Shown here piece after piece: positions 8,456 through 14,434 of a stretch of DNA of 64,000 nt. The stretch is from Myxococcaceae bacterium (GTDB taxonomy: Bacteria; Myxococcota; Myxococcia; Myxococcales; Myxococcaceae): NCBI GenBank assembly GCA_003818285.1, contig RPRB01000006.1, positions 2,504-66,503 of the forward strand, read 5' to 3'. The notes under the pieces were generated by a model. It did no database searches and had not been told where the DNA came from. It saw only the letters and a program-made list of their open reading frames with translations. Each line of letters starts with the position of its first letter. Within the stretch, counting starts at the first letter, position 1. A program made the translations under genes and the position numbers.

Positions 8456-8974
8456 TCAGCTCCCGGACGATGTAAACTCCTTCAGAAGCTTCACCTCGAC
8501 GCCGGCCTCCCGGAACATGTCGCAGGCCAGCAGGGCCTTGCTCTGCCAGGGCTCGGCCTGCGGGATCTCCTCGCACACGACCCGTCGGACCCCGCAGGCG
8601 ATGATGGACTTCGCGCACTCCTCGCAGGGGAAGAGCGTCGCCACCATCGTCGCCCCCTTCGTGTCGAACTTGGCGTTGTCGAGGGCGTTCCGCTCCGCGT
8701 GGATCGTGTAGAGGTACTTGGTCGCCCGGTGGTTCAGCCGGTCCTCCGTGTCCCTGAGCCCTGGCGGGAAGCCGTTGTAGCCGAGAACCAGGTCCCGACG
8801 GTCGGCCCCGACCAGGACCGCGCCCACCTTGGTGCTCGGGTCCTTGCTGCACTGCTCCGCCCAGAAGTGGGCCAGCGCCATGTAGCGACGATCCCACTTG
8901 TCCTGGTTCAGACGCGGCAGGCGGTAGTCCTCCTCGGGGCCTCCGAGCCCGCTGAGATCGATCTCATCGCCCAT
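8456..8974 (-). CDS. dCMP deaminase
   Basis: HAERNAL and PCEECAKSI (HAE ... PCxxC zinc motif of cytidine/deoxycytidylate deaminases). The start is set at the second ATG, after the MazG-like stop region. Confidence 0.85.
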   Translation of the reverse strand: MGDEIDLSGLGGPEEDYRLPRLNQDKWDRRYMALAHFWAEQCSKDPSTKVGAVLVGADRRDLVLGYNGFPPGLRDTEDRLNHRATKYLYTIHAERNALDNAKFDTKGATMVATLFPCEECAKSIIACGVRRVVCEEIPQAEPWQSKALLACDMFREAGVEVKLLKEFTSSGS

Positions 8975-9425
8975 CGTGGTCACCGACGGGCTTCCCGGCA
9001 TTCATCTCGTCGTACCACCACGCGATGCGGCGGTTCAGGATCGCCCGCTGGTCCGCGTCCGGGGGCTTCCACCCGGCGGGCTTCACCACGTCGAGCGAGT
9101 TCTTCCGCTTGGATCTGTCGTCGTCCCCGCCGGTCGCCCGCTCCTTCGCCATGTTCGCCCTCTGGACGGTGTCCCAGAGCTCGCCCCAGGGCAGCCCCAT
9201 CATGTGCCCGGTGCCCAAGGCGACGTAGACGAGGTCGAGCAGCGCGTCCGCCGCCTTCTGAAGGCTGCCCTCCTCGACCGCCAGCTTGTACTCCAGCAGC
9301 TCCTCCATCATGAAGTCGAACCGGAACTTGCTGTCGCCCTCGCTGAGCAGCTTCGGCGGGCCGGCGTCCGACCGATCGAGCCCGAACTTCCTGTGGAAGG
9401 CGCCGACGTCTTCAAACATTCCCAT
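8964..9425 (-). CDS. MazG-like nucleoside triphosphate pyrophosphohydrolase
   Basis: All-alpha pattern FRFDFMMEELLEYKLAVEEG ... DALLDLVYVALG (EExxE / DxxD metal-binding motifs). Confidence 0.7.
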   Translation of the reverse strand: MGMFEDVGAFHRKFGLDRSDAGPPKLLSEGDSKFRFDFMMEELLEYKLAVEEGSLQKAADALLDLVYVALGTGHMMGLPWGELWDTVQRANMAKERATGGDDDRSKRKNSLDVVKPAGWKPPDADQRAILNRRIAWWYDEMNAGKPVGDHDGR

Positions 9426-10269
9426 TCTGCTTCTCCTGTGCCAGGTAGGTGTCCATGTCGTTCTTGAAGACGTGGAGCGAGGTCATGTGCATACTGTAGG
9501 TCCAGGGCACGATCTCGTTCCACACCTGCGGGTTCAGCCGGCGGCACTGCTCGATGACCCAGAGCAGGAGCCGGACGGCGAGGTAGCAATCGTCGTTGTA
9601 GTGCCGGATGAGGTCGCAGGACCTGAGCGGATACCAGATCATCGCCCGCTTGTCCCGGACCATGATCTGGTAGCCCAGGGTGCAGACCTTTCGGCCCCCG
9701 TCGGACAGCCCCGTGTCCTCCGGGAAGAACAGCGGGATGTAAGCCTGCCTTGTGTGGGGCTCCCGAGCCAGCAGGTCGATCAAATCCTGGAGGTCCCCGT
9801 AACCATGGGCGATCCCGTACTTGGGCCGGTTGTCCACCGCTGGCCATTTGCGAAGCCCGTACTCGCCGGCCGGCGGCTTGGGCAGGACCCCATCGTCGGT
9901 CCGACGGGCGAACTTCGGCCAGAGCCGTTCCATGTACGTGTGGTTGAAGCGTTCGGTTTTGAACTTCGCTGCCGACAGGCCCCACGGCCACTTCGCCCAC
10001 TGGGTTCCAGGGTTCAGGGGCTCGCCCCCGACGCGCTCGAGGAAGTGGTCGTCGGCCCACGGCCGATTGCAGTTCGTGTCCTGTCGCCAGTGCTCCAAGC
10101 CTTCGCCCCCGTGCAGGGGCACGCTCACGTTCACGTCCTGGAGCTCGAACGTGTCCGTGTTGACCGGGACGCCCTGCCACCGCTCAGTCTTGACCGGCGG
10201 GGCCTTTCTCATCTCCGCCTTCAGCTTCTCCCTCAGCTCCGTGAACGTCTCCGCTTGCACCGCCAGCAT
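9412..10269 (-). CDS. thymidylate synthase / dCMP hydroxymethylase superfamily enzyme (divergent)
   Basis: VCTLGYQ holds the candidate catalytic Cys. RSCD lies exactly 20 residues later, as in ThyA, followed by SLHVFKND. The N-terminal half is atypical. Confidence 0.75.
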   Translation of the reverse strand: MLAVQAETFTELREKLKAEMRKAPPVKTERWQGVPVNTDTFELQDVNVSVPLHGGEGLEHWRQDTNCNRPWADDHFLERVGGEPLNPGTQWAKWPWGLSAAKFKTERFNHTYMERLWPKFARRTDDGVLPKPPAGEYGLRKWPAVDNRPKYGIAHGYGDLQDLIDLLAREPHTRQAYIPLFFPEDTGLSDGGRKVCTLGYQIMVRDKRAMIWYPLRSCDLIRHYNDDCYLAVRLLLWVIEQCRRLNPQVWNEIVPWTYSMHMTSLHVFKNDMDTYLAQEKQNGNV

Positions 10270-10531
10270 ACTTCTCCGCCTCCATCTTTGCCCTGGCCTC
10301 CGGCGTCATCGCGTGGACCAGGAAGTTGCATCCGTCCTTCTTGATGTCGGTCACCACGCCGCACTTATCACAGGACCCCGTCTCAAAGAAAGTGTTCGCC
10401 TCCGACATGGTCAACCGCTGACCGCAGCCGGCGCAGGAGAACTTCTGGTACACGTCCGCCCCTCGAGCGATCGCATCGTTGGCTGCGATCACGACTTCGT
10501 CGAACGGGTGGTTGAGCTTATTCGCTGACAC
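10184..10531 (-). CDS. small zinc-ribbon protein (start uncertain)
   Basis: CAGCGQ ... CDKCG motifs. There is no ATG near the upstream stop, so I used the GTG at 10531. The 3' tail runs 86 nt into the next gene in a low-GC3 frame. Confidence 0.4.
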   Translation of the reverse strand: MSANKLNHPFDEVVIAANDAIARGADVYQKFSCAGCGQRLTMSEANTFFETGSCDKCGVVTDIKKDGCNFLVHAMTPEARAKMEAEKYAGGASGDVHGAEGEAEGGDEKGPAGQD

Positions 10532-13396: not shown

Positions 13397-13446
13397 AGTC
13401 ATTGGGGCGTCAGGGGTTAGCCCAACGTCCTCCCCTTCCGGGGAGC

Positions 13447-13713
13447 TCAGTCTGTCTTCTTGGCCGGCGGGCTCCGGGGCAGGAGCGGCTTCGCGTCCGG
13501 GTTGAAGAGGTTGCGGCCGGAGCCGAACGTGTAGTCCTCAGCGCTCCGGCTGCGACCTGGCATCCCTGCTGTGCGGCGGACGGGGCGCTGTGGGGGCGGA
13601 AGGTCCGTTATGAGGCGTGTGAGCTCCCTCTTGCTCCTCTGCCGGATCGCGTACAGCGCCAGGACGGCGACGACGAAGACCAGGATTGCGATTGCCCAAG
13701 CTATCGTGTTCAT
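13447..13713 (-). CDS. membrane-anchored hypothetical protein (88 aa)
   Basis: Internal ATG of ORF 13447..14007, with an ATGA overlap with 13710..13982. The N-terminal hydrophobic segment is MNTIAWAIAILVFVVAVLALYAI. Confidence 0.45.
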   Translation of the reverse strand: MNTIAWAIAILVFVVAVLALYAIRQRSKRELTRLITDLPPPQRPVRRTAGMPGRSRSAEDYTFGSGRNLFNPDAKPLLPRSPPAKKTD

Positions 13714-13982
13714 TTGTCTCTCTGTGCTTCTGGAATGCCGAGGTGTGCGTACCCGGCGATGTCGTCCCAAGTATCCTTCAGGTCCGGGTCGCCCGTGAGC
13801 AGGCGGTGGACTTTGTGCGCGATCATCCGGAGCGAAGCCCTCTGCCCCCGGCTCATCGCCTGCCAGTTCTTGGCCTTCTCCCAGATCTCGATCGTGGCCT
13901 CGCTGATCTCCGCTCCGTCGTCCCAGTTGCCGTGCGTCGACTTCCGCTCTTCTCGAAGTTCCTTCGTCGTGCTCGTAGACAT
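13710..13982 (-). CDS. small alpha-helical phage protein (90 aa)
   Basis: ORF MSTSTTKELREERKSTHGNWDDGAE ... MIAHKVHRLLTGDPDLKDTWDDIAGYAHLG. The pattern is common in phage nucleotide-metabolism neighbourhoods, but I am not certain of the family name. Confidence 0.5.
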   Translation of the reverse strand: MSTSTTKELREERKSTHGNWDDGAEISEATIEIWEKAKNWQAMSRGQRASLRMIAHKVHRLLTGDPDLKDTWDDIAGYAHLGIPEAQRDK

Positions 13983-14434
13983 CAGTATCGTCCTTGGTAC
14001 AGGTCAAGAAGGAGCAGGCCGACCAGCGCCCGCACCGTCGGGTCGTTGTAGAGCAGCGTCCGGCCGGAGGTGTGCGGGATCAGCCGCCAGATCACGCCGT
14101 CCACGAGCTGTGGGTGTATCAGGACTTTTTCAATCTTCCGTGAAAGCCGGTGGTTCAATTCCGCCCTGACCTCATCGCCCAGGACTACGACCGTGGTCCC
14201 GACGGGAGCGTGGAGCCGGAGCTCGAAGGGGTGGTCCAGGATGTTGCGGCGGCGGAACGATCGCTCGTAGTCCACGCTGCTGATGGTCGGGGCCACATCC
14301 TTGATCAGCCGCCAGAGCCGCCACCCGGCGGACCGGATCGGGGTCGCGCACAAGGCGTCGATCGGGCGATCCGAGTGGGGGTTGGTCAGACCCAGCAGAA
14401 GCGGGGAGGTCTTCGGTTTGGCCATGAGCTGCAC
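13982..14434 (-). CDS. hypothetical protein with UDG/MUG-like motifs
   Basis: LLLGLTNPHS ... SAGWRLWRL ... VVVLG ... LIPHTSGRT parallels E. coli MUG GINPG ... ANRFWKV ... LPNPSG. This is an alignment by eye only. Confidence 0.45.
   Translation of the reverse strand: MQLMAKPKTSPLLLGLTNPHSDRPIDALCATPIRSAGWRLWRLIKDVAPTISSVDYERSFRRRNILDHPFELRLHAPVGTTVVVLGDEVRAELNHRLSRKIEKVLIHPQLVDGVIWRLIPHTSGRTLLYNDPTVRALVGLLLLDLYQGRY

Follow-up and report, generated by a model that had tools for sequence, protein, structure and literature searches.

Why would a phage keep, in one short string of genes, three enzymes of nucleotide metabolism that recall the way in which phage T4 prepares a modified cytosine, and next to them a C5-cytosine-methyltransferase (MTase)-like protein and an amidotransferase of the asparagine synthetase (AsnB) family? 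The string in question lies at positions 8456–14434 of a 64,000-nt stretch of contig RPRB01000006.1, the whole of which was analysed and is hereafter called the window. The sequence-only reading, made before any database search, had interpreted the string as a module that modifies DNA bases by the logic known from T4, an interpretation that our analysis upholds; the thymidylate synthase (ThyA)-like enzyme carries an Asp (D227) at the position of Escherichia coli N177. The same reading had placed the PP-loop amidotransferase and the MTase-like protein in no known route and had suggested that the chemistry may be new. The first of these statements has to be abandoned, since the pairing is that of the published CmoX/CmoY pathway (PMC12783734). 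The second was overtaken by the same paper as far as a wholly unknown chemistry is concerned; what survives of it is that the proteins of the window belong to a separate clade, with Lys at a key position, no CmoA and a ThyA-like neighbour. We give an even chance to the cluster encoding a two-stage pathway of cytosine modification, the first stage acting on nucleotides and the second on DNA.

In Synechococcus phage S-B43, CmoA makes carboxy-S-adenosylmethionine (Cx-SAM), CmoX, a homologue of the C5-MTases (PDB 8YF3), makes 5-carboxymethylcytosine (5cxmC), and CmoY, a homologue of asparagine synthetase, ligates glycine to the carboxylate of 5cxmC (Yang et al., Nat Commun, December 2025, PMC12783734). 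Arg350 of CmoX replaces Asn304 of M.HhaI and contacts the carboxylate of Cx-SAM, and a second large cluster of ligases possesses a glutamine-hydrolysing domain and is predicted to use ammonia (PMC12783734). The published census of CmoX proteins was filtered on the SPPC motif and on the Arg (PMC12783734).

The MTase-like protein: a candidate carboxymethyltransferase

The MTase-like protein of the window has the C5-MTase fold, and its catalytic Cys91, in motif IV, aligns with Cys98 of SpCmoX and Cys81 of HhaI. In a MAFFT alignment, Lys353 stands opposite Arg350 of SpCmoX and the Asn of Dcm and HhaI (RQTG-K-AMP, ERVG-R-MVP and QFG-N-SVV, respectively). A Lys occupies this position in 114 of 120 close homologues and at all 29 loci collected from IMG/VR, down to 43% identity; in the wider clade it is again Lys, occasionally replaced by Arg in a few distant members. 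Cys91, the GxG of motif I, the Glu-Trp of motif II and the Arg residues of motif VIII are all conserved, and the signature of the clade reads GHPECG / MDDLP / QTG-K353-AMP. The residue that follows the catalytic Cys is small, being Gly here and Ser or Ala in CmoX, and the protein ends in a module with four Cys residues.

From these residues we predict that the protein is a Cx-SAM-dependent carboxymethyltransferase, that is, a Lys-type analogue of CmoX. The engineered enzymes M.MpeI N374K and M.MedI N377K gain Cx-SAM-dependent carboxymethylation by the same Asn-to-Lys change, and M.MedI N377K keeps its methylation activity with S-adenosylmethionine (SAM; PMC12015181).

The clade comprises 665 representatives at E <= 1e-3 among 1.84 billion proteins, and about 170 representative clusters at E <= 1e-10. 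It is essentially restricted to phages, with two matches in 185,579 species genomes. Seven homologues (P0134, P0171, P0209, P0225, P0229, P0233 and P0237), and also the protein encoded at L100:5905-8106, bear inteins with DUF559/Vsr-like endonuclease domains, which are inserted exactly before the catalytic Cys (GHPE | intein...HN | CGxFS). At locus L185, PolA contains an intein as well. Two loci carry two tandem Lys-type paralogues each (L083:8688-11200 and L085:4388-6800), perhaps with different sequence specificities.

The AsnB-like protein: a candidate amidating ligase

The AsnB-like protein starts with MCG, which provides the glutaminase Cys2, and possesses the PP-loop motif SGGLDS. In its family the MCG N-terminus is found in 113 of 120 members and SGGxDS in all 120. 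Because both the glutaminase Cys and the PP-loop are kept, the product is probably a primary amide, 5-carbamoylmethyl-cytosine, and we predict that the protein is a glutamine-type analogue of CmoY that amidates a carboxymethyl group on DNA. Its best match in the phage database is gp124 of phage TurkishDelight (24% identity over residues 1–401, E 6e-22), a glutamine-type ligase encoded between an orthologue of CmoX and a homologue of CmoA (gp125, which matches TIGR00740); against SpCmoY the E value is 0.1.

The AsnB-like gene lies directly upstream of the MTase-like gene at each of the 27 loci for which upstream DNA is available, despite several rearrangements and identities of 43–70%, and the order of the two genes matches that of CmoY and CmoX in S-B43. 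This adjacency bears on a simpler explanation, namely an MTase-like protein that is simply an orphan 5-methylcytosine (m5C) MTase working with SAM and protecting against restriction, and an AsnB-like protein unrelated to it, serving for example in the amidation of a metabolite or of the cell wall together with the amidoligase and GGACT genes found nearby (Table 1). In keeping with such a role, the Pfam DNA_methylase profile matches above threshold, the NCBI annotation is likewise that of a DNA cytosine methyltransferase, an N6_N4 MTase is present in the same island of related phages, and MTases with the Asn-to-Lys change can still use SAM (PMC12015181). Moreover, modules of amidoligase and GGACT genes have been proposed to modify peptidoglycan or metabolites (PMC11945000). 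However, an ordinary MTase would account neither for the constant adjacency of the AsnB-like gene nor for the basic residue that stands clade-wide in place of Asn304, nor for the Gly after the catalytic Cys. In addition, the amidoligase and GGACT genes are conserved in the nearest relatives only, whereas the AsnB-like gene tracks the MTase-like gene. We therefore consider this explanation very improbable.

The ThyA-like enzyme, the pyrophosphatase and the deaminase

The catalytic Cys of the ThyA-like enzyme (C196) is invariant, as is the Asp at the E. coli N177 position, the determinant of the preference for dCMP over dUMP. D219, which corresponds to D169 (RSCD), is retained in all members, and at the L143 position an Arg (R193) is conserved clade-wide, distant members included. 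The C-terminal tail of thymidylate synthase (TS) is missing, the protein ending 19 residues after His266, and no Pfam family matches it (PF00303 is not above threshold). According to Lee et al. (NAR 2026, PMC13326640), a hydrophobic residue at L143 is diagnostic of methyl, L143D/E of hydroxymethyl, and L143E with D169N of hydroxyl products. The combination found here, with Asp at N177, D169 kept and Arg at L143, fits none of the published product classes. Foldseek searches with an AlphaFold2 (AF2) model (predicted local distance difference test score, pLDDT, 80.5) do not separate these classes either, since the phage dCMP hydroxylase AfhB, MilA, TS and the T4 dCMP hydroxymethylase score alike.

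Two identities can be set aside. A 5-hydroxy-dCMP synthase, suggested by the top Foldseek matches, is ruled out by the retained D169, and an ordinary thymidylate synthase by Asp227, Arg193, the missing tail and the co-occurrence of ThyX in relatives. We predict a folate-dependent, cytosine-specific enzyme modifying dCMP at C5, similar to a hydroxymethylase. A phage from Manatee Spring (L002:2909-4509) has two adjacent ThyA-like genes together with ThyX, tmpK and a nucleoside triphosphate (NTP) pyrophosphatase, an arrangement which argues that the ThyA-like family is not plain thymidylate synthase.

The MazG-like pyrophosphatase reaches 51.1 bits against PF01503 (gathering cutoff 21.3) and matches PDB entry 3nl9 and DR2231, a dUTPase that is its closest solved relative. 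The core formed by the ThyA-like and pyrophosphatase genes is widespread in phages, usually with a dCMP deaminase adjacent. It occurs without the MTase and AsnB genes at 48 of 64 loci, which include cultured phages of Pseudomonas, Serratia, Brevundimonas and Gordonia where the ThyA-like protein is annotated as thymidylate synthase.

These last observations would suit the view that the three enzymes merely supply nucleotides, the ThyA-like protein being either a divergent TS or a step from dCMP through a 5-substituted dCMP to a dU derivative. The cytosines of the DNA would then stay unchanged and free for the CmoX-like enzyme, and the genes would be linked simply as parts of a shared early-gene island. 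The dUTPase nature of the nearest solved relative of the pyrophosphatase, the dUTPase_2 gene carried by the more distant loci, and the fact that neither a deoxynucleoside monophosphate (dNMP) kinase nor a small P-loop open reading frame (ORF) was found in the window also agree with it. On the other hand, the invariant residue at the N177 position is Asp and not Asn, the protein lacks both a Pfam TS match and the C-terminal tail of TS, and a second thymidylate synthase would be redundant in relatives that also have ThyX. Together with the strongly contrasting distribution of the ThyA-like gene described below, this makes a role in nucleotide supply alone unlikely in our judgement.

Absence of CmoA and linkage to the ThyA-like gene

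The 29 Lys-type loci from IMG/VR were compared with a control set of 80 loci encoding Arg-type CmoX. Searches by tblastn with SpCmoA and TurkishDelight gp125 revealed no CmoA in the 64-kb window or in about 90 loci, and none appeared in Pfam and NCBIfam scans of the window ORFs. Within 10 kb of the MTase gene, CmoA was found at 0 of the 29 Lys-type loci, whereas it is present at 64 of the 80 Arg-type loci (22 of 26 among loci of at least 10 kb). The Methyltransf_24 protein encoded at 38392–38985 is not CmoA.

The reverse distribution was observed for the ThyA-like gene with Asp at the N177 position, which lies nearby at 24 of the 29 Lys-type loci and at none of the 80 Arg-type loci. Four of the five exceptions are due to truncated contigs and one to a spacing of about 11 kb, so that every Lys-type locus that can be evaluated has a ThyA-like gene on the same contig; Fisher's test on 25 of 27 versus 0 of 80 gives p ~2e-22, a value uncorrected for relatedness. 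The link survives rearrangement as well as divergence to 36–43% identity for the MTase-like and 24–30% for the ThyA-like protein. The distant loci L092, L184 and L185 encode an MTase-like protein of 36–44% identity together with ThyA-like proteins of a divergent branch of 226–273 residues.

So strict an association is puzzling if each stage is taken separately, for the ThyA-like enzyme would be expected to fill C5 of every cytosine, yet its constant companion is a C5-alkylating enzyme whose catalytic Cys is intact. Possible resolutions are that residual cytosine is targeted, that a 5-substituted base is targeted, or that the product of the ThyA-like enzyme is diverted to a dU derivative.

The second resolution leads to an alternative that we regard as conceivable but doubtful, in which both stages form one linear pathway: the MTase-like protein would act in DNA on the product of the ThyA-like enzyme, for example 5-hydroxymethylcytosine (5hmC), instead of unmodified cytosine, the AsnB-like enzyme would then amidate, and the final base would be new. 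Addition of Cys91 at C6 might expel formaldehyde, leaving a C5 carbanion to be carboxymethylated in a swap of groups; it might instead expel hydroxide, a carboxylate-bearing nucleophile held by Lys353 then adding to the exocyclic methylene; or else the hydroxyl might be O-carboxymethylated, as CmoB does on 5-hydroxyuridine (ho5U). According to reports from the Klimasauskas laboratory, C5-MTases can take aldehydes off C5 or put them on, and can join exogenous nucleophiles to 5hmC, which speaks for a linear scheme. So do the persistence of the ThyA-like link through rearrangement and divergence, the absence of CmoA throughout, the changes close to the base in the active site that are not seen in true CmoX (ENV to DDL/DNL and PPC to PEC), and the conserved Arg at the L143 position of the ThyA-like enzyme, which matches no known product class. 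Conversely, the conserved adenosyl-binding Glu-Trp and GxG still imply a SAM-type cofactor, the invariant Cys91 would be unneeded for O-alkylation, and the AsnB-like protein has a homologue in the ligase found beside a genuine C5-carboxymethylating CmoX. The loci could also share one phage lineage, in which case the linkage would be inherited rather than functional, the scheme presupposes that 5hmC is formed and incorporated, and no dNMP kinase was found in the window. With corresponding reserve we suggest that the GHPxCG/DNL/QTG-K clade may work on a base installed by the ThyA-like enzyme, the latter, with its Arg at L143, representing a new product class, and that the virion may contain a cytosine derivative never described. 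Such a base might, to give one tentative example, carry a carbamoylmethyl group attached through, or replacing, the 5-hydroxymethyl group.

A proposed two-stage pathway and its difficulties

Returning to the two-stage pathway that we favour, its first stage would proceed on nucleotides in the manner of T4. The ThyA-like enzyme would modify dCMP at C5, probably with folate, to a product that we take to be hydroxymethyl-like, while the MazG-like pyrophosphatase would remove a competing dNTP and the dCMP deaminase would supply the dU/dT branch. The second stage would take place on DNA and would rely on a pair of enzymes related to the published CmoX and CmoY, but of the Lys type and without CmoA, with residual cytosine or the product of the first stage as the acceptor. 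The MTase-like enzyme would flip out a cytosine-type base, Cys91 would attack C6, and a carboxymethyl group would be moved from Cx-SAM, the carboxylate of the cofactor being bound by Lys353. Since no phage CmoA was found, the host would have to supply the cofactor, which is plausible because SpCmoX, when in E. coli, can do with the CmoA of the host (PMC12783734). The AsnB-like enzyme would then adenylate the carboxylate and amidate it with ammonia from its own glutaminase domain. The end product would be a 5-carbamoylmethyl-type cytosine that blocks restriction. Of this scheme, the folds, catalytic motifs and gene associations are established by the sequences, and the cofactor, the product and the acceptor base are deduced from them.

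Several observations weigh against this scheme. The MTase-like protein is merely 21% identical to SpCmoX, and its residue at the HhaI Asn304 position is Lys rather than the Arg that defines CmoX. The Lys alone is no proof of Cx-SAM use, as M.MedI N377K still methylates with SAM. Motif IV of the family is invariably GHPEC where the published CmoX proteins have SPPC, motif VI is DDL or DNL (MDDLP or MDNLP) instead of ENV, whose Glu contacts N4 of cytosine, and neither the Phe of motif I nor the Asp of motif III is conserved, so that the contacts with adenine are weakened. The lack of CmoA around the Lys-type genes and of a dNMP kinase in the window points in the same direction. Some phage AsnB-like genes have neither CmoX nor CmoA nearby, and the distant clade member at L184 is accompanied by ThyA-like and PRA-PH genes with no AsnB nearby. 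Finally, if the first stage replaces every cytosine at C5, a possibility raised by the puzzle outlined above, the C5-alkylating enzyme would be left without a substrate.

Organization of the gene string and its surroundings

The string exists as the sequence-only reading had described it, and eight of its nine gene calls are upheld, as is the structured terminator that it had placed upstream of the AsnB-like gene; the hairpin with its U tract separates this gene from the small genes (Table 1). Conservation of gene order among related loci is much beyond chance, and the DUF6378 gene is commonly found directly upstream of the AsnB-like gene in relatives. The zinc-ribbon ORF has a coding-like G+C content at third codon positions (GC3, 0.85) in its non-overlapping part, yet it was skipped by the gene caller; none of the related loci contains a homologue of it, relatives having an N6_N4 MTase there instead. 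Also in agreement with the sequence-only reading, none of the window ORFs scanned with Pfam or PHROGs corresponds to the 5-hydroxymethyl-dU DNA kinase (5-HMUDK), aGPT-Pplase, radical-SAM, pyridoxal phosphate (PLP) or deazaguanine genes of known hypermodification pathways.

The one call that did not stand is the label of the first gene product, a 150-aa protein, as similar to the uracil-DNA glycosylases UDG/MUG. It receives no support from Pfam, PHROGs, NCBIfam, a search of a 10-sequence profile against PDB profiles, hhalign or AF2. The hhalign comparison with E. coli Mug gives a probability of 2.7%, with the motifs in register, and the single-sequence AF2 model has a pLDDT of 44. Only the resemblance of motifs is thus left of this identity, and the protein is found in closer relatives only.

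Table 1. Features of the gene string and of its surroundings (window positions)
Feature	Position	Strand	Evidence or remark
150-aa conserved phage protein (phrog_12275)	13982–14434	-	motifs GLxNPHS ... PHxSGR..YND
90-aa DUF6378 protein	13710–13982	-	
88-aa small predicted membrane protein	13447–13713	-	N-terminal hydrophobic helix; no family match
Intrinsic-terminator-like hairpin	about 13330–13396	-	GC-rich (GGGGAGCAGG...CCUGCUCCCC), then U6 tract UUUUUUGUUU
AsnB-family Gln-dependent amidotransferase	11938–13308	-	Asn_synthase E 4.9e-33; GATase_6/7
C5-cytosine-MTase-like enzyme	10518–11936	-	PF00145 E 2.8e-17; atypical motifs
Zinc-ribbon ORF	10184–10612	-	CxxC...CxxC; start uncertain; overlaps both neighbours
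ThyA-fold enzyme	9412–10269	-	phrog_160 1e-21; AF2 model; Foldseek
PRA-PH/MazG-like all-alpha NTP pyrophosphatase	8964–9425	-	PF01503 E 1.8e-13
dCMP deaminase	8456–9001 (gene caller: start 8974)	-	E 3.9e-23
Runs of a 9-nt unit	7890–7934; 8274–8327		CAAGAGGTG-like
Helix-turn-helix (HTH)/sigma-70-region-4-like gene	7940–8275		flanked by the 9-nt unit runs
85-nt direct repeat, three copies	6600–6684; 6879–6963; 7258–7342		88–96% identical
Weaker 45-nt copies of the repeat	at 6199; at 7778		
Amidoligase_2	5106–6116		
GGACT/AIG2 gamma-glutamyl-cyclotransferase-like genes	4087–4869; 3187–3699		
ORF with Lar-like restriction alleviation domain	1643–2134	-	PF14354, E 1.3e-8, C-terminal end
Family-2 glycosyltransferase and Methyltransf_24 SAM-methyltransferase	36802–38985	-	within structural block
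1109-aa protein	44071–47400	-	collagen triple-helix repeats, DUF4082, glycine-rich domain
GcrA-like cell-cycle regulator homologue	52655–53374	-	weak, E 5.7e-5
DUF1643 protein	61354–62043	-	E 1.9e-43

Downstream of the string lie an amidoligase gene and two GGACT/AIG2 genes which the sequence-only reading had overlooked; since they track the nearest relatives only, we treat them as neighbours and not as members of the pathway. All copies of the 85-nt and 45-nt repeats lie in the gaps that separate small minus-strand ORFs, which gives the region (6199–7822) the appearance of a promoter or regulatory cassette present in several copies. With the Lar-like ORF, the same early region has a second function directed against restriction. 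Further away, the gene for the collagen-like 1109-aa protein is located directly downstream of that for the portal and has a GC3 below that of its neighbours, and the DUF1643 gene adjoins that of PolA.

The window is a fragment of the genome of an uncultured tailed phage, encoding portal, prohead protease, tape measure, major capsid, terminase, PolA and primase, and nearly all its genes are on the minus strand. Proteins identical to its own are encoded on a 75,335-bp contig of an NCBI metagenome-assembled genome (MAG), binned as Myxococcaceae, and on a 29.8-kb contig from the Joint Genome Institute (JGI); window-based results cover 64 kb of the 75-kb source contig, the remaining 11 kb or so lying outside them. 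The region has no DNA-level match by megablast in 50,697 phage records, and in deposited phages neither the MTase-like protein, whose best match reaches 24%, nor the AsnB-like protein has a close homologue. The GcrA-like gene, which is also present in the relative L006, and the fact that the MTase-like protein has only two matches in cellular genomes, both of them alphaproteobacterial MAGs, indicate that the host is probably an alphaproteobacterium, perhaps of the Caulobacterales or Rhodospirillales, contrary to the bin label.

Significance

Carboxymethyl transfer and amide ligation on cytosine are already known from CmoX and CmoY. New is a Lys-type, CmoA-less clade coupled to a ThyA-like enzyme and provided with a glutamine-dependent amidating enzyme, a clade that a census based on SPPC and Arg would have missed entirely. 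Because this clade is set apart by Lys in place of Arg, by the absence of CmoA and by its obligate ThyA-like neighbour, the final DNA base may be one not yet described. If the clade is active, nature would have found, independently, the same Lys solution as protein engineers, and phages could run the pathway on host Cx-SAM alone. The amide predicted to result from the glutamine-dependent reaction would be one not observed so far. Being so strictly paired with a ThyA-like enzyme specific for cytosine, the clade provides a way to probe whether cytosine chemistry before replication and cytosine chemistry after it are joined to give a new base, and should the MTase-like protein act on a 5-substituted cytosine, it would be the first natural DNA C5-MTase scaffold repurposed to decorate such a base. 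Such enzymes are relevant to the resistance of phages to restriction and to the sequencing tools that rely on carboxymethylation.

Comparison with known systems

A close parallel is the CmoA/CmoX/CmoY system of S-B43, a phage anti-restriction hypermodification, and we propose the same role for the cluster in the window. In both cases a C5-MTase homologue adjoins, and lies downstream of, a ligase of the asparagine synthetase family, and the protein of the window shares with CmoX the basic residue at the equivalent of HhaI Asn304 and the small residue after the catalytic Cys. Unlike S-B43, the window combines Lys, GHPEC and DDL, in a protein of low identity with an extra C-terminal four-Cys module, instead of Arg, SPPC and ENV; it lacks CmoA and has an obligate ThyA-like neighbour. 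Its ligase also differs from SpCmoY, which uses glycine and has no glutaminase domain. In this respect it is matched by gp123–gp125 of the Streptomyces phage TurkishDelight (the 'A0A7T0Q3R0-like' cluster of CmoX, glutamine-type ligase and CmoA), where the same two-domain ligase occurs and a primary amide is the predicted product, the role of that ligase being likewise predicted. The TurkishDelight MTase is, however, an Arg-type orthologue of CmoX with SPPC and ENV, accompanied by CmoA and ParB-like genes and, in the 7 kb examined, by no ThyA-like gene. M.MpeI N374K and M.MedI N377K share with the window protein the Asn-to-Lys exchange at the motif X position but are laboratory mutants, CG-specific and otherwise canonical MTases that retain SAM activity.

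As for the first stage, the 5-hydroxy-dCMP synthases (RB69 gp48, DLP3 gp80 and HY126 AfhB; PDB 9IQC/9IQU) resemble the ThyA-like enzyme in the Asp at N177 and are its top Foldseek and profile matches, but have the diagnostic D169N, whereas D219 is retained in the window. The clustering of functions of the dCMP hydroxymethylase, dCTPase and dCMP deaminase types is that of gp42, gp56 and cd in T4. Like gp42, the ThyA-like enzyme has Asp where E. coli has N177, a SLHxF/Y motif and a short C-terminus, their sequence similarity being detectable at the profile or fold level only; it differs in having Arg, and not Asp or Glu, at the L143 position, and neither a dNMP kinase nor glucosyltransferases were found in the window. 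In thymidine hypermodification by 5-HMUDK and aGPT-Pplase (Lee et al. 2021), the kinase and pyrophosphorylase have no counterparts among the window ORFs scanned with Pfam and PHROGs, and the ThyA-like enzyme of the window is, by contrast, predicted to be cytosine-specific. Amidoligase and amidotransferase genes have nevertheless been noted near those clusters (Lee et al. 2021), and the logic would be the same in both systems, a handle being installed before replication and decorated after it.

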